A stretch of 32,000 nt of DNA from Candidatus Jordarchaeales archaeon (GTDB lineage: Archaea > Asgardarchaeota > Jordiarchaeia > Jordiarchaeales > Freyrarchaeaceae), in contig JAWAHN010000002.1 of NCBI GenBank assembly GCA_038889235.1, positions 14,356 to 46,355 of the forward strand, read 5' to 3'. Shown one piece after another: positions 458 through 10,391 of this stretch. The translations under genes were made by a program, and so were the position numbers. The notes below the pieces were generated by a model that saw only the letters and a program-made list of their open reading frames with translations, ran no database searches and was not told the DNA's origin. Each line of letters opens with the position of its first letter. The first letter of the stretch is position 1.

Positions 458-3301
458 TCAAGGCATCCTACTGAGCATCTGCTCGAGCTCCCTGATCTTC
501 CTAAGCGCCTTCCTCATAAGGAAAGTGTACTCCTCCTCGCTCATCCTCCCGAGCGAATAGTACTCGTGCAGGCTCTGAAGGTACTTCCGAATCCGCTGTA
601 TCTTGGCGGCAACCTCCTCGCGCGAAGGAACCTCCTCGTCCCCCCCTCTACCAACACCGCCCTCAACCTCCTCAGCCTCTCTCTTCGCCGGCGGCGCCTC
701 AGCCGCGGTTTCAATTGGAGCCACCGGCGGAGCTACAACCCTCCTCCTCTCCCTCCTCGGTGGGGGCACCCACTCCCCCTTCACCTCTTTCAGCTCCTTC
801 TCCAAGGCACCTTTAAGCCTAGCCGCCTCCTCCCTACTGGGAGCGGTGACCTCAACGGCGACCAGCGTAGCGTCAACACTCAAACCCACTGCTGCAGCCA
901 GCCTCGCCGCACCTCTCCCCGCCAGGACCACTACCTCCTCCCCGGGTTGCTCGGAGACCTCCCATCCTTGGGACGCCAACACCTCCTTCAGCTTCCCGAC
1001 GACGAGCGACGGGTTAACTTTAACAGCCAACTGGAACCCCGACGACTCGGCCTTCTGCGACGGGTAGAGGTGTTCGTGAAACCTGTACTTAACCAGCCTG
1101 GAAAGGTAGTCGAGCGCCAAATCCTGCGGCACGTCGAGAACCCTGACGCCCACTGTTGGCTCAATCGTGGCTTCAGGCGGCCTAGCAGCCTCGCCCCCCT
1201 CCACGCCCCTAAATATATCCACCGCCTTTGTTTCGCTTACTTCAGACGGCTTAGCAGCTCCCTCAGCAGCCTCACCTCCTACCCCTTCAGCCGCTGTGCT
1301 GGGTGTGGCCTCCCTTCCGGCGTGTTTGCTCACACGCGGCCTAACCTTCACCACGAAGGCTCTCCCGGTCTCCGCCGACACGTCTGAGACCACTGCTACC
1401 CCGGTCGGAAGTCTGCGTATTAAGTCCTCAGCCAATTTTGGAACCACGTTAGGCGACCTCCTCCTGAAAGCCTCCACGTCCGCCTCGAAGACCAGTCTGT
1501 GTGCGATCACCACGTCTACTTGGGACAACACGCGGTCGTCTGTGGCTGAGGGCTGCTGTGTGGCGAGGACGAGGGCACACCCAGGCTTCCTCCCGAGAGT
1601 GGCGTACTCCACTAGAGGCTTTGAGGCAGCGGTCTCCCCCTTGGCTGGGATTAGCGTGTGCGCCTCGTCCACCATGAGCCACGTGACAGGTATACCCCCC
1701 GCCCCCTTACGCCCCGCCTCCTCAGCCCTCGCTTCCCTTTTCCTCCTCTCCAGTATCTTCCTCGCCAGCAGTCCTACCACGAGCCCCCGCAGCTCCCCGG
1801 TCAGCGTGCTGACATCTACCACCGACACGGTGTTCGGCTTAACTATTTCCTCCAAGGGTGTGCCTTCCTTCGAGAAAATCCCCCACCCCTTTGCCGCCAG
1901 CAGTCTCGAAACCACCGCCCTCCTCGTGTCCGGCTTAAACCCCCTCTCACGCGACAGTATCTCCTTTGACGTCTCAATGCACTCGATTAAGTCGTCGACG
2001 GAGTACTCGTCACCCTTACCCTCAACCTTCACCTCTCTCCCTTCTATGAAGGCGGCATACCCCTCCCTAACCTGTACCAGTGCCTTCTCGATCAGAAGTC
2101 CGGGTGGGCTGAACCTTTCAACACCGAAAGCGTAACACCAGTCGTCAACCGTCAAGTCCGACGGCTTCACGGAGAACGGCACATCCCTAGTTGTCTCCGG
2201 CAGCTCTCCATAAACCCCCAACGGGACGAAGACCCTGACATTGCTAAACCCCTTAGGCTCCAGCCCCCACTCCCTAACCCTCCTCAGCTCATCCGCCTCG
2301 CTGCTCGGCTGCTTCACGCTCCAGAACACACCAATCGGGTCAACTATGACGACCGCCACCCCAAGACCTGAACGCGCAATCTCCTCGGCTAGGACGCCCA
2401 GCGTGTAGGACTTCCCCGACCCCCGCTGGCCGCATATGAAGACAACGTGCGGCTTAAGCACGTCGAGAAGCACAGGGCGCCCCGCCAGCTCCCCCCTCTC
2501 CCATACGCGTCCAATATAGGCGAGCCCACGGCTCACCTCGCGCTCCTCCCTAGTCCTGCCGAGCACCACCCCCTCCCCCACCTCGTCCAACATCACCTCC
2601 AAGGGTGCCCCAACATCGAACACGTCTCCCGGAGCATCCCTCCTCCGCGCCCTCAACTCCCCTAAGAGAGCGGAGAGAGCCCTCCATACGTCTTCAGCAT
2701 TGTCCAAGCTCAGGGATTCAAACACCTTCTCCCGGTCACGCACCCCTTCCGGGTAAAAATTCGGGTCGAAGTTGCAGACCTCCCAGCATGCGAGCGCGGC
2801 ATCCTCTCCAAGCACGCCTGCTGCTTCATCGAAAAACCTTCTCTCTCCCGTCGCCCCGTAGAGCGCCAGAACCCCCCTGGCCCTCTCCACCCCGCTCAGC
2901 CTGTCCACAGCCTCCCTCATCTTCGACAATAACTCCCCACGCCCGGTAGCCCAGTAGACCTCCAGGAGTACTTGGAGGAGTGCCACGTCGACGTACGTTG
3001 TTCTGAAGGCGTAGTCGGCCAGTCTTCCAAGTGCCTCCTCAGTCCTCCCCCCGGGAGCCAGCCTTAGGGCGCGCGCTGCAGCGTTCAGCCTGCCCCCCGC
3101 ACTTCCTCCTTCAAGTATCATGCCGGCCAGCTTGTCCGCTTCGGCCACCGCTCTCTCCAAGAACTCTCTTCTACCGGTCAGCTGGTAGACTGCAGCGAGG
3201 GCGCAGGTTCCCTCCCCTCCCGAGAGGCTTAACACGTCAACCTTTCCCAGAATGGTGTGGAGTAGCTCGCAGACGGGTCTTCCTCTTTCAAGCATAGGCA
3301 A
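458..3301 (-). CDS. Multidomain HerA/FtsK-superfamily ATPase (DUF87/COG0433-like core) with N-terminal helical repeats and C-terminal alpha/beta plus SHOCT-like modules
   Basis: 947-aa ORF with PHVVFICGQRGSGKS (Walker A), IVDPIG, WLMVDEAH (Walker B), GRKPG and LATQQP motifs typical of HerA-like ATPases. Start is TTG 3301 or ATG 3295. Confidence 0.85.
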   Translation of the reverse strand: MPMLERGRPVCELLHTILGKVDVLSLSGGEGTCALAAVYQLTGRREFLERAVAEADKLAGMILEGGSAGGRLNAAARALRLAPGGRTEEALGRLADYAFRTTYVDVALLQVLLEVYWATGRGELLSKMREAVDRLSGVERARGVLALYGATGERRFFDEAAGVLGEDAALACWEVCNFDPNFYPEGVRDREKVFESLSLDNAEDVWRALSALLGELRARRRDAPGDVFDVGAPLEVMLDEVGEGVVLGRTREEREVSRGLAYIGRVWERGELAGRPVLLDVLKPHVVFICGQRGSGKSYTLGVLAEEIARSGLGVAVVIVDPIGVFWSVKQPSSEADELRRVREWGLEPKGFSNVRVFVPLGVYGELPETTRDVPFSVKPSDLTVDDWCYAFGVERFSPPGLLIEKALVQVREGYAAFIEGREVKVEGKGDEYSVDDLIECIETSKEILSRERGFKPDTRRAVVSRLLAAKGWGIFSKEGTPLEEIVKPNTVSVVDVSTLTGELRGLVVGLLARKILERRKREARAEEAGRKGAGGIPVTWLMVDEAHTLIPAKGETAASKPLVEYATLGRKPGCALVLATQQPSATDDRVLSQVDVVIAHRLVFEADVEAFRRRSPNVVPKLAEDLIRRLPTGVAVVSDVSAETGRAFVVKVRPRVSKHAGREATPSTAAEGVGGEAAEGAAKPSEVSETKAVDIFRGVEGGEAARPPEATIEPTVGVRVLDVPQDLALDYLSRLVKYRFHEHLYPSQKAESSGFQLAVKVNPSLVVGKLKEVLASQGWEVSEQPGEEVVVLAGRGAARLAAAVGLSVDATLVAVEVTAPSREEAARLKGALEKELKEVKGEWVPPPRRERRRVVAPPVAPIETAAEAPPAKREAEEVEGGVGRGGDEEVPSREEVAAKIQRIRKYLQSLHEYYSLGRMSEEEYTFLMRKALRKIRELEQMLSRMP

Positions 3302-3306
3302 CCCGG

Positions 3307-3927
3307 TTACAGCTCCTCTTTAAGCTTCTTGATGTCTTTCTCCAGCTCGGCTATCTTTCCAGCCGGCACGGAGGGCAGCTTAACCCCTGTCTCGACGCCT
3401 ATCTCCTGGTCTATCTCGGTCAGCACGTCCACTACTTCTTTCGTGGTGACGTCGGTGGACATGGCCATTTTCTCGAAGCCAGCTTCAGTCATGTCGTGAG
3501 CTATGTCGAACTCCCTCATCGAAGCATCTATCTCGTCCACAAGTTGAGCGACGTCTGGGAGGCTAACCGTGCTCTTCAACCCTTCAAGGGCCGCCTTTAT
3601 TCCGGAGAGCGTGCTGGCGACCTCGTAAACCGACTGGCTCTGCCTCAGCCTCACAACCATCCCTTGGATCCTCATTCTGTAAGCGTCTGTAGCCAGAGCC
3701 CACTTCTGGTACCTTAGGAAATGCTCGGCGTACATCTTCGCCGCGTCGTTGTTTCCAGCCATGCGGTAGCGCTTAGCCTCTTCCCTGCTCCTCTTAGCCT
3801 CCCTCTCGAGCTCCTTCTTGTGGTACTCGAGCTTCCTCGTGAAGACCTCCAGCTTGAATATAACGTCTTTGAGGTTTGGCCCCCCTTTGAGCCAGCTCAG
3901 AAACTTCTTGAATGACATGGAGACCAT
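3307..3927 (-). CDS. ESCRT-III protein, Vps2/24/46 (Did2/CHMP1)-like (ESCRT-IIIA)
   Basis: All-helical 206 aa. AKRYRMAGNNDAAKMYAEHFLRYQK...RIQGMVVRLRQ matches the CHMP1/Did2 pattern. It has an amphipathic N-terminus (MSFKKFLSWLKG), an acidic C-half and a terminal ELEKDIKKLKEEL helix. Alternative start ATG 3918. Confidence 0.85.
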   Translation of the reverse strand: MVSMSFKKFLSWLKGGPNLKDVIFKLEVFTRKLEYHKKELEREAKRSREEAKRYRMAGNNDAAKMYAEHFLRYQKWALATDAYRMRIQGMVVRLRQSQSVYEVASTLSGIKAALEGLKSTVSLPDVAQLVDEIDASMREFDIAHDMTEAGFEKMAMSTDVTTKEVVDVLTEIDQEIGVETGVKLPSVPAGKIAELEKDIKKLKEEL

Positions 3928-7405: not shown

Positions 7406-7444
7406 GGGTTTGGGCTGTGCGGTTTGGTTTGGGCTTTCCTTGGG
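7406..7444 (+). other. 3' arm of the pre-16S processing stem (BHB)
   Basis: GGGTTTGGGCTG-TGCG-GTT-TGGTTTGGGCTTTCCTTGGG is the reverse complement of 5824-5862 apart from the two bulges. Confidence 0.9.
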
Positions 7445-7623
7445 TTCGGGTTTTCTGTTTGTTTTCGTTGTTGTTTTATGTGGAGTGTATTCTCTTTTTG
7501 CTTGTGTGTTTGGTGGGCTGTTTTAGTGGTTTGTGGGTGTTTTGCTGTGTTGTTTTGTGGGTTTTTGGTGGTTTGTGGTCGGTTTGTTTGGGTTGCTTCT
7601 CGTTTGAATTGTTTTGGGTGTTG
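7441..7623 (+). other. Low-complexity G/T-rich non-coding tract downstream of 16S
   Basis: Hand count gives 162 of 180 bases G or T over 7441-7620. Confidence 0.85.
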
Positions 7624-8793
7624 TTAGTGTGGTTTTAGTGGGGTTATGATGGCTGTTAGGGGTCCTTGTGGTGTGTGTGCTTTTTCTGAGACTATTTTTT
7701 GTATTCCTGCTGCTTTCGCTATTTGTTGGGTTATTTCGTCTAGGCTTATGTTGGTGTAGAGTGCTATGGTGTGGTTTTCTCTCATTCTTGGGAGGAATTG
7801 TAGTAGTAGTGGGTTTGCTTGTTTTCCGGTTTTGGGGTTGCATGGTGTTACCAGTATTCTTCTGCTTTCTGGTGTTGTTGCTGTTTTTTCGGTTGCGTAT
7901 TGGAGCTGGTTTACTGTTACTTTTTCTCCTAGGTCTGTTGTTCCTTCGTAGTTTTCGAGTTCTTCTACTAGTTCTTGGTCTGGTTGGAATGGTTCTGGTT
8001 TGTGGATTTTGAGCACGAGGTATAGTGGTTCGGGGTATTTTTCCGCGGCTTTTTTGGCCCTGCTGGCTGCATCTTTCACTGTTGCTGCCTCCACGATTAC
8101 GGGGCCTCCTGTGGTTTTCCTTTTTCCTCCGGTTGTCGGGGTTGTGGTTTGGCTTAGCGCGCTTTTCAGCTCTTCTTCGGCTGTCTTGTAAATGTGTGCT
8201 GACGCTGATATCGTGGTGGTTGTCCCAACGGATTCCACTCCTTTAATGTGTGAGGCTGCCTCTGTGAGGAAGGCCATGTTTATCCCTGCCACGTCTTCCG
8301 GCCATGCTCTCGCCATGTCGTTGCTTCTGATGTACGCGATGGCGTTGACCGTGTCTCCAAACCTGTGGAGAATTATCATGCTTATGCATGGCGGGTTAGG
8401 GTTGGAGGTGTCGGACGCCGGGTTCCAGAACTGTATCAGGGCGGTGTCGCTCCTCTTGAGCGCCTCTCCCGCTTTCACGACTTGGTTGACCCCGAACCTC
8501 TTTCTCGCGCACCACCCGTAGGTGTAGGTGTGCCCGCCTTTTTCAGCCGTCAGGTACTGGGGTATGTAGCTTTCCTTGAGCGTTTTCTCGTCCATTCCTA
8601 TGTAGCCGCGGGGGAGTATGGGTCCGCTCCTCCATGCTGTTAGGTGTATCACGCATCCTATTGTTTCGAGCGTCTCCTGCCTTTTGTCTTCCGTCGTCAC
8701 GGGTATGCCTTTCTCCAGTATCAGCCTGTTAGCCTGCCTCCAGGCTGCGTCCACGTGGCGCGCTCTTATAACGTATGGGCCGTAGGGTTTCAC
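7624..8793 (-). CDS. Thymidylate synthase-fold protein, tandem domains (catalytic N-domain plus degenerate C-domain)
   Basis: YTYG, NQV, FWNP, PPC(136), RSND(156-159) and SAHIY(198-202) are in the N-half. A second degenerate copy carries NQL..PESRR..NP..LLLQFLPR. GTG start overlaps the upstream stop (GTGA). Confidence 0.82.
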   Translation of the reverse strand: MKPYGPYVIRARHVDAAWRQANRLILEKGIPVTTEDKRQETLETIGCVIHLTAWRSGPILPRGYIGMDEKTLKESYIPQYLTAEKGGHTYTYGWCARKRFGVNQVVKAGEALKRSDTALIQFWNPASDTSNPNPPCISMIILHRFGDTVNAIAYIRSNDMARAWPEDVAGINMAFLTEAASHIKGVESVGTTTTISASAHIYKTAEEELKSALSQTTTPTTGGKRKTTGGPVIVEAATVKDAASRAKKAAEKYPEPLYLVLKIHKPEPFQPDQELVEELENYEGTTDLGEKVTVNQLQYATEKTATTPESRRILVTPCNPKTGKQANPLLLQFLPRMRENHTIALYTNISLDEITQQIAKAAGIQKIVSEKAHTPQGPLTAIITPLKPH

Positions 8794-10391
8794 TTTGCCT
8801 CCCTCACCTTATAGTATGGGTGGACTGGCCTAGGAAGTGTTCCGAGGACGTTGCGTGCCTCATCCGCCACGGCGGCTTCGGCTGCTGCCACTAGTGGGAA
8901 GACTTTCTCCGCGTTCCTGATGGGCCCGTAAAGATTGAGGTCCACTCCGTATAGTGACGGTAGAGCGTATATGAAGGAGAAGTCCATTTTCTGTCTGAGC
9001 TCGCGCGGCACCCCTGCAACCATGTTGTGTATGCCTATGGCTGTAGGGTAGCCGTAAAGCTCTTTAAACACCCACGCGGCGTGAAGTGCCTCTATGCCGC
9101 CCTCACCGAGTATCGGGACTCCTGGGTCCAGTATGGCTCCCTCAACAACCCCCCCAACCCCTGACAGCATAGTTTCAGCCTTCTTCAACCTTTCCTCTAG
9201 CGTGAAGCCGTAAGCCAGGATTATGGCGTACCTTACCGGCGCTATTCTGTGTAGGAGCTCAGTCTCCCTCCCACCGGACCCCGTAACCGAGTTGTACACG
9301 GTTCTGTGATCCAGCCCCACCTCCTTCGCCGTCTCCATCGCTTCGACGCGCGCCTCGAGACTTGTCGAGTCAATTATTATAGGCGCGTCTGTCACATCTG
9401 CTACGAAGAGCAGATACCTGGATAGTGCTTCACCCGTCTCGCCAACAACGTGGACCATTGATGGTATGCAGTACTCGTCTGAGAGCTCCGCCTGTCTGAC
9501 AACAAGCCCCTCGGCGGCCTCCTCGTCGAAGACCCCTCTAACTGGGTCCTTAACCACGGGATCCTTCCTGTAGAACAGCGTGCCAGCCAGAACAATGGAG
9601 TACTCACCCCTCTGCCCGCCGAGCTTAACCCCCGCCACGTCGTAAACCCTCAGCTCACTTCTCCTATAGAACAGTGCGCTCAAGGGCTCAGCCCCCCTCT
9701 CCCTCCACCATCCCCCCTCCATTAGGCGTGCAAGCGCCCCCCTCCAGTCGTACTTCTCCTCTTCGAGGGGCGGAATCAGGGGTGGCTCAGGGTACTCTTC
9801 AACATGCCTCTCGGCGAGCAGGCGCATTTGCGCCACTATCTTCTCCGGGCTCCTTTCCCCCCGCAAGTCCACCAGTTCGACCTGCCTCCTAAACCTCTCG
9901 ACGACCACGTGTGGCTCCCCCACCCTGAAGTACTTGGGGTGAAGGAATGGTATAGTCCCCTCGCTCCCGATAACCCTGTAATCCTGCCCTATGCCGTTTT
10001 TGTAGAGGGCCACGAGCGTCTGTCCCGGGGCGTGCCCCACAACCTCCTCACCACAGACGACTAGAAACCTTATTCTGTTGTTGGAAACTATGTTCTGAAT
10101 AACCCTGGCAACCCCGTCGTTCTCCGTCTCACACGGCCCAGCTATGGCTACGAGGTCGGCTGCCAGAGAAACAATTTTCTCCGGCAGGTCGTGCGAGCCA
10201 CACGTGACCACAGCGAAAGCCGCGTCATCCCTCCCAACCACGTAGTCCCCTGAAATGTACGGCCATTTCGCCACATCAACCACCGCGTTGAAAGGTGTTC
10301 GCCCAAACAACACGGCTACATCAAACTCAGAAAGAGCCGAGTTACATTTTTTACGCTCGGACTCAGCCCCTCCCGGGTTTAAGGAGCTCAC
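8790..10391 (-). CDS. MtrA-MtrH fusion (corrinoid-binding MtrA domain plus methyl-tetrahydromethanopterin:corrinoid methyltransferase MtrH domain)
   Basis: N-half: WPYISGDY..G, AVVTCGSH, GPCETEN.G..RVIQNIVSNNRIRFLVVCGEEVVGHAPGQ (corrinoid His kept), IGSEGTIPF. C-half: VYDVAGVKLGGQRGEY..VLAGTLFY, IIIDST, VYNS. Confidence 0.9.
   Translation of the reverse strand: MSSLNPGGAESERKKCNSALSEFDVAVLFGRTPFNAVVDVAKWPYISGDYVVGRDDAAFAVVTCGSHDLPEKIVSLAADLVAIAGPCETENDGVARVIQNIVSNNRIRFLVVCGEEVVGHAPGQTLVALYKNGIGQDYRVIGSEGTIPFLHPKYFRVGEPHVVVERFRRQVELVDLRGERSPEKIVAQMRLLAERHVEEYPEPPLIPPLEEEKYDWRGALARLMEGGWWRERGAEPLSALFYRRSELRVYDVAGVKLGGQRGEYSIVLAGTLFYRKDPVVKDPVRGVFDEEAAEGLVVRQAELSDEYCIPSMVHVVGETGEALSRYLLFVADVTDAPIIIDSTSLEARVEAMETAKEVGLDHRTVYNSVTGSGGRETELLHRIAPVRYAIILAYGFTLEERLKKAETMLSGVGGVVEGAILDPGVPILGEGGIEALHAAWVFKELYGYPTAIGIHNMVAGVPRELRQKMDFSFIYALPSLYGVDLNLYGPIRNAEKVFPLVAAAEAAVADEARNVLGTLPRPVHPYYKVREAK

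Follow-up and report, generated by a model that had tools for sequence, protein, structure and literature searches.

The sole enzyme of the thymidylate synthase (TS) type in a Candidatus Jordarchaeales archaeon, a two-domain protein encoded on contig JAWAHN010000002.1 (GCA_038889235.1), carries an aspartate (Asp167) at the position of Escherichia coli Asn177. The residue is invariant in, and specific to, one clade of proteins; the protein has the TS fold, its gene is paired with a gene for an MtrA-MtrH fusion protein (MtrAH), and the genome retains the enzymes that supply dUMP. In our estimate there is about an even chance that the protein is the TS of the cell acting on dUMP by an altered chemistry that is tied to MtrAH, with the aspartate as a mechanistic adaptation. 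The conversion of dUMP to dTMP is accordingly described below as putative, and so are the source of the one-carbon unit and the function of Asp167. Coordinates refer to the window, i.e., the whole stretch of 32,000 nt that was analyzed.

The gene and the Asp167 codon

The gene (7624..8793, minus strand) is an open reading frame of 389 aa, for which an AF2 model of high confidence was obtained (pLDDT 92.4, pTM 0.93). Residues 87-219 match the Pfam family PF00303 (E=5e-11; 42.6 bits, with the cut-off at 24.3), and the TS fold was recovered by Foldseek (E=5e-12) and by VIA (Z 19-23 over ~200 residues); the protein belongs to the ThyA superfamily, with homology far above chance. Its translation includes R156-S-N-D159-M-A-R-A-W-P-E-D167, in which R156-S157-N158-D159 (codons AGA AGC AAC GAC, 8317..8328, minus strand) match the E. 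coli motif R166-S-C-D169 and Asp167 (codon GAC, 8293..8295, minus strand) aligns with E. coli Asn177, Lactobacillus casei Asn229 and Asp179 of T4 dCMP hydroxymethylase (dCH). The codon TGC of the catalytic nucleophile, Cys136 (E. coli Cys146), lies at 8386..8388 (minus strand), and the residue is invariant in the alignment. The ThyA catalytic features C136, R156, S157, D159, H200 and Y202 correspond to C146, R166, S167, D169, H207 and Y209 of E. coli; the Cys stands in the usual Pro-Cys motif, and the His and Tyr are the residues that contact the 3′-OH. The canonical Asn at position 177 is replaced.

The original prediction, made from the DNA letters, had placed an aspartate at the Asn177 position and numbered the E. 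coli residues accordingly; both points were borne out by direct reading of the codons and by several alignments in agreement. A phmmer comparison with solved TS chains set RSNDMARAWPED of the query opposite RSGDMGLGVPFN of the viral and human enzymes, and in hhalign the family profile paired the query motif with YQRSCDVFLGLPFN of E. coli and with RSNDVVFGFRND of T4 gp42. In a single HMM alignment, the query shares D with T4 gp42 in the position-177 column, where E. coli ThyA has N.

Two features of the window stand apart from the TS gene. Opposite its 3′ half, the plus strand at 7417-8012 contains long open frames in which Leu, Phe, Val, Gly and Cys abound; such frames fit the strong G/T versus A/C strand skew and in our view are not genes. 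At 458-3927, a gene for a HerA-type ATPase of 947 aa adjoins a Snf7/ESCRT-III gene, a typical Asgard context that is unrelated to the TS.

Precedents for aspartate at position 177

Position 177 is the determinant of dUMP versus dCMP specificity, and both T4 dCH and MilA carry Asp there (PMC8670742, PMC13326640, PMC6400193). Exchange of the canonical residue for Asp turns TS into a dCMP methylase, as in E. coli N177D and L. casei N229D (PMC8670742, PMC13326640); Asp also marks TS homologs on phage contigs with modified cytosine (PMC8670742). In T4 dCH, Asp179 protonates N3 of the base, and D179N lowers kcat ~3600-fold (PMC6400193). Asp at 177 is common to T4 dCH, MilA and the flavin 5-hydroxy-dCMP synthases, among which position 143 and the substitution D169N serve as further codes (PMC13326640). 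The precedent that the original prediction drew from N177D, N229D and T4 dCH therefore holds in the literature (PMC8670742, PMC13326640, PMC6400193). By analogy, an Asp that makes a canonical TS into a dCMP methylase and marks natural cytosine-acting homologs would speak against dUMP as the substrate of the archaeal protein.

Aspartate and asparagine among the archaeal relatives

A word-indexed search returned 25 full-length homologs of 36-85% identity, with the source names Freyarchaeota, Jordarchaeia and Lokiarchaeia, and across their alignment D167, C136, R156, S157, N158, D159, H200 and Y202 are invariant. A HMMER search with the N-terminal domain returned 381 relatives (E ≤ 0.001), the best 150 of which were aligned to one HMM; the short methanogen-type forms came from this full search, a word-indexed search for shorter homologs having given one fragment of the same clade. 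In the HMM alignment, position 177 is D in all 27 sequences of the Asp clade, which come from five Asgard families, and N in every short single-domain form of the methanogen type (36/36) and every long DUF4346-TS-MtrA fusion (94/94). The methanogen-type TS of Methanobacterium virus PhiF1, the nearest named comparator, likewise has Asn. Among the aligned relatives, D was found outside the clade in two unrelated exceptions only (P0073 and P0135). The Asp clade is monophyletic with a support of 0.997 and has N-bearing sister groups (FastTree, 138 sequences).

Asp at position 177 is thus a feature of one clade and not of archaea in general. As Asn occupies the position throughout both groups of relatives, the Asp is a real, ancient, clade-specific and selected change, which by the tree arose once at the base of the clade. 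Two of the checks attached to the original prediction are answered by these counts: the Asp is conserved in the homologs of the clade, and the archaeal synthases in which its presence would have spoken against a cytosine substrate have Asn in all 130 of the nearest relatives compared. A single change from Asn to Asp, after which both states stayed invariant, is the pattern of a functional switch, and on the sequences this apparent signature weighs against a reaction with dUMP.

A further 14 residues are invariant and specific to the clade (D15, K37, W54, Y80, G86, H88, W94, R99, Q121, N124, I137, A161, T177 and T204). One of them, Trp94, is shared with T4 gp42 and occurs in ~1-3% of the Asn-type relatives, a distribution that may also be counted against dUMP. 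Position 133 corresponds to E. coli position 143, where an acidic residue admits water in the dCMP/CMP hydroxymethylases. It is Asn (n=19) or Asp (n=8) in the clade and is similarly polar or acidic in the Asn-type relatives, so neither it nor the rule based on exclusion of water by L143 discriminates within the family.

The Asp might simply relax the specificity, so that both dUMP and dCMP are methylated and the dCMP product is tolerated or recycled. In work of Liu and Santi from 1993, Asn229 is said mainly to exclude dCMP, and many substitutions there reportedly keep activity on dUMP, which together with a genome context that demands synthesis of dTMP would favor such a dual specificity. On the other hand, the Asp stays strictly invariant in sequences of 36-85% identity, as would be expected of a residue that is needed and not just tolerated, and 5-methyl-dCTP would enter the DNA; we regard dual specificity as very improbable.

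A single-chain pseudo-dimer

The catalytic N-domain (residues 1-225; 8119..8793, minus strand) keeps Cys136, R156-S-N-D159, Tyr92, Glu43, His200 and Tyr202, and is followed by a degenerate second TS-fold domain (residues 226-389; 7627..8118, minus strand) that lacks both the Cys and the RSxD motif. The two domains are barely linked by sequence (hhalign E=0.043, probability 1.2%), and the C-domain has a weak match to PF00303. Its assignment to the TS fold comes from the fold search, the sequence link alone being too weak: when it was modeled alone (pLDDT 90.2), the seven top matches of an unbiased VIA search all belonged to the TS superfamily (Z 10.7-14.3), and the next unrelated chain scored 5.2. 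The structural neighbors of the N-domain in VIA are 9iqu (Z 22.7), MilA (Z 20.7) and L. casei TS (Z 19.6). As the best two of these act on cytosine nucleotides, the modeled structure, too, would count against dUMP.

What the C-domain has kept is the Arg-Arg pair R311-R312 (codons at 7858..7863, minus strand; hhalign register), which lies within an invariant S310 R311 R312. At the equivalent site the N-domain reads D116-T117; the pair is lost there and the site varies across the clade. A canonical homodimer, in which Arg126′ and Arg127′ are donated mutually, does not match this arrangement, since the pair is kept solely in the fused C-domain. We infer that R311 and R312 are the phosphate clamp given to the N-domain site, in the manner of E. 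coli R126′/R127′. According to the models, then, the protein is a single-chain pseudo-dimer composed of a catalytic N-domain and a dead C-domain that has kept only the Arg-Arg clamp. It would contain one active site, to which the N-domain would supply Cys136, Tyr92, Glu43, R156, S157, D159, His200 and Tyr202, and the dead C-domain R311 and R312.

The exceptional P0073, a metagenome representative of 244 aa that is 29% identical to the N-domain of the query, is a single-domain protein with Asp at the same position and the Arg-Arg pair kept (NSRRAV), and is possibly a homodimeric form of the Asp type. A scan of genome contigs seeded with P0073 gave no relative of it; the best match was an Asn-type fusion of 462 aa from an uncultured archaeon (CAZGBT010000006.1; L045:5293-6681), which combines an N-terminal extension, a TS domain with Asn at 177 and a C-terminal PterinBD-DUF4346 region. 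This fusion indicates that the link of TS to such partner domains is wider than the Asp clade.

Thymidylate and dUMP supply in the carrier genomes

In the genome of the Jordarchaeales archaeon (95% complete), the matches to PF00303 come from this gene only, and no ThyX was found and no thymidine kinase over the cut-off, which answers another check set by the original prediction, a search for a second ThyA or ThyX. Dihydrofolate reductase (DHFR), the usual companion of canonical TS, was likewise not found there by PF00186. A sole full TS and no ThyX were found in each of 16 carrier genomes, a set that includes three closed ones. Among 10 other Jordarchaeia genomes, which include the closed genome CP147778, ThyX is absent from all and the two-domain gene is present in nine, the remaining one (G002, 83% complete) being without a TS match; in two closed Atabeyarchaeia genomes (G021 and G031) and two of Borrarchaeum (G047 and G062), no ThyX and no other TS were found.

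In two Freyarchaeia genomes (G009 and G010), a second, short and divergent TS-fold gene occurs alongside (L065, G009:C536; L066, G010:C121). The motifs PC, RSLD and SAHxYE are present, but the Asn177 loop is missing owing to a deletion of five residues, and one of the copies contains two in-frame TAG codons. This may be a gene of a mobile element or a contaminant.

With respect to the supply of substrate, the genome of the Jordarchaeales archaeon encodes a dCTP deaminase (Dcd; 142 bits, cut-off 92.8) and a dUTPase (184 bits, cut-off 130). A match to the dCTP deaminase family is present in five of five carrier families, clear in four and borderline at the cut-off in Borrarchaeum. A dCMP deaminase of the CDA type, also named by the original prediction as something to look for, was not found in the same genome, either with PF00383 (0 matches) or in a six-frame scan for the zinc motif (0). 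PF00383 matches occur in one of five other Jordarchaeia, in neither of the two closed Atabeyarchaeia and in both Borrarchaeum genomes; the latter combine the CDA-type deaminase with a borderline dCTP deaminase match of 166 aa, and the other lineages show the reverse pattern. The dCTP deaminase matches in every lineage indicate that the classical supply of dUMP has been kept, and most lineages are without the deaminase that a route through 5-methyl-dCMP would use.

These data bear directly on the possibility that dTMP is made from a cytosine nucleotide. In such a route Cys136 would add to C6 of dCMP, Asp167 would protonate N3 as in T4 dCH and C5 would take the one-carbon unit; the resulting 5-methyl-dCMP would become dTMP through an unrecognized deaminase, or the 5,6-dihydro adduct would be hydrolytically deaminated in the same site. 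The route is attractive because the Asp is invariant at an experimentally validated specificity position (PMC8670742, PMC13326640, PMC6400193), because T4 dCH and MilA have the same residue code (D177, D169 and a polar 143; PMC13326640), and because the closest structures are enzymes acting on dCMP and CMP. Moreover, the product of a sole TS must end as dTMP, and Borrarchaeum does carry a CDA-type deaminase. Against this, no CDA-type deaminase was found in the Jordarchaeales genome itself, in four of the five other Jordarchaeia or in the two closed Atabeyarchaeia, and retention of dCTP deaminase and dUTPase makes sense only if dUMP is consumed. In addition, the polar residue at 143 is family-wide, Asn-type relatives included, and the margin in the structural ranking is small and may reflect the short core common to those enzymes. 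We therefore consider this route possible but rather unlikely. Of the original suggestion that a deamination-coupled path leads to dTMP, the deaminase is missing in the genome concerned, and the path survives at that reduced probability; the broader proposal of a cytosine substrate finds no support in a genome with a sole TS, no ThyX, and both dCTP deaminase and dUTPase kept.

The MtrA-MtrH partner and a possible one-carbon route

The gene for the MtrA-MtrH fusion (8790..10391, minus strand) lies directly upstream of the TS gene, its TGA stop overlapping the GTG start of the latter by 4 nt (GTGA at 8793-8790). His120 of the fusion, of the corrinoid-ligand type, is invariant. The two-domain Asp form was found in 18 of 301 sampled Asgard genomes, representing five GTDB families (carriers among Jordarchaeia/Freyarchaeota, Atabeyarchaeia, Borrarchaeum and Sifarchaeum), and in all 18 the MtrAH gene is located directly upstream on the same strand; it is the only conserved neighbor of the TS gene. 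The Asgard MtrAH fusion has been described with its methyl acceptor left open (PMC11291895), and the TS is offered here as a candidate for that acceptor.

Structure prediction suggests that MtrAH binds the TS. The predicted complex has an ipSAE of 0.88, against 0.45 for the best control; of 80 solved complexes 58 came up to that mark, as did 2 of 110 mismatched pairs. At least 69% of the contacts recur between runs, and the partner pLDDT is at least 90. In the predicted complex the MtrH part touches TS residues 7-24, 50-53, 213-234 and 249-253, so that the clade-specific D15 lies inside the interface and W54 adjoins it. Residue 167 is outside the predicted interface, and a role of Asp167 in contacting MtrAH was rejected.

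If the protein is a dUMP-using synthase, it would work while bound to the co-translated MtrAH as its one-carbon source, and the likeliest path would lead from a methyl-pterin through the corrinoid of MtrA to the nucleotide. Such a path would avoid oxidation of the pterin; no DHFR match was found. The dUMP would be made by the dCTP deaminase and dUTPase of the genome, and Asp167 would have been kept because a carboxyl group is needed at N3-H/O4 of uracil, as a protonated mimic of Asn or for acid/base chemistry, and not because the base is cytosine. It counts against this reading that an MtrA partner alone does not demand the Asp, as is shown by Asn-type relatives with fused MtrA-like domains. 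It is also tempting to speculate, at a lower probability that leaves the idea doubtful, that thymidylate does not come from dUMP at all: a cytosine nucleotide would be methylated at C5 from methyl-pterin via the MtrAH corrinoid and then deaminated, in the same site or by an unrecognized enzyme. If true, cells would have a third way of making the T of DNA, one that is linked to B12 and marked by the Asp.

Comparison with known members of the superfamily

The nearest sequence family is the methanogen-type TS (TIGR03283), to which the query matches with 97.9 bits over residues 7-205, below the membership cut-off of 174.55 bits. Both share a short TS core, the catalytic Cys, RSxD, the His/Tyr pair, the Glu, the Tyr and a polar residue at the L143 position. 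The methanogen-type enzymes are single-domain proteins, mostly with Arg-Arg in the same chain and with Asn177 in 36 of 36, whereas the query has Asp, has lost the Arg pair of the catalytic domain, carries an additional dead domain and is coupled to MtrAH.

T4 gp42 (1B5E, 6A9A) and MilA (5JNH) resemble the query in combining Asp at 177 with a kept Asp169 (D167 and D159 in the query) and in having no leucine at 143; T4 gp42 also has the Trp after the catalytic Tyr-Gly, and MilA, the CMP hydroxymethylase of Streptomyces, is a top structural neighbor of the N-domain. These enzymes are homodimers that use methylene-tetrahydrofolate, and they belong to modification or antibiotic clusters, with a normal TS elsewhere. 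By contrast, the query is the sole TS of its cell, a pseudo-dimer with a corrinoid/pterin methyltransferase as partner, nested among Asn-type archaeal TS, and it is found in no such cluster with a separate TS.

L. casei TS N229D (1NJC) and E. coli TS N177D differ from their wild types by just this substitution at the corresponding position. They are laboratory mutants of a folate-dependent homodimer, whereas the Asp of the query is natural, ancient and invariant and is accompanied by 14 clade-specific residues. Against the clade profile, 1NJC scores 37.6 bits and wild-type L. casei TS 34.5, in a ranking over solved sequences that does not tell enzymes acting on cytosine apart from those acting on uracil.

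For either domain, the top match by structure is HY126 AfhB (9IQU/9IQC; N-domain Z 22.7, C-domain Z 14.3). AfhB and RB69 gp48, the flavin 5-hydroxy-dCMP synthases, share the short TS core and Asp at 177 with the query, but they are oxygen-dependent phage enzymes. The hosts of the Asp clade are anaerobes as far as is known. The diagnostic D169N of the flavin enzymes (PMC13326640) is absent from the query, where D159 is invariant; the query is thus not of the hydroxylase type.

The last comparison also concerns the proposal that the product of the protein is 5-methyl-, 5-hydroxymethyl- or 5-hydroxy-(d)CMP, a modified cytosine nucleotide that would be used in DNA, in RNA or in a small molecule, with thymidylate coming from another enzyme or from uptake. 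The likeness of Asp167 to T4 dCH and MilA and the lack of a leucine at the water-excluding position 143 are in its favor. It is, however, at odds with the absence of another source of thymidylate (no ThyX, no second TS and no thymidine kinase over the cut-off), with the annotated neighbors in the window, which include no glycosyltransferase, dNMP kinase or dCTPase, with the kept D159 in place of the D169N signature (PMC13326640) and with the vertical conservation of the gene, which forms a core operon across five Asgard families. Such a function is improbable, and base modification, one of the two roles first proposed for the enzyme, is unlikely to be the main role of a protein that is the sole full TS in 16 ThyX-free genomes.

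Implications for Asgard thymidylate synthesis

Nothing was found in print on the features of the Asp-type TS: no paper was found that connects TS to a corrinoid protein or to MtrH, or that names both MJ0757 and thymidylate synthase. A study of the history of ThyA and ThyX in Asgard archaea does not mention the Asp or the MtrAH fusion (PMC9931769), and the present finding bears on the ThyA history given there. Asn177 has been treated as universal in cellular TS, and Asp at this position has been used to predict cytosine-modifying phage enzymes; here entire Asgard lineages, namely, Jordarchaeia/Freyarchaeia, Atabeyarchaeia, Borrarchaeum and Sifarchaeum, have the Asp fixed in their sole TS. If the residue rule fails in this natural enzyme, the prediction of modified DNA from metagenomes would be affected; otherwise, the T of these relatives of eukaryotes may come from a route that has not been described.
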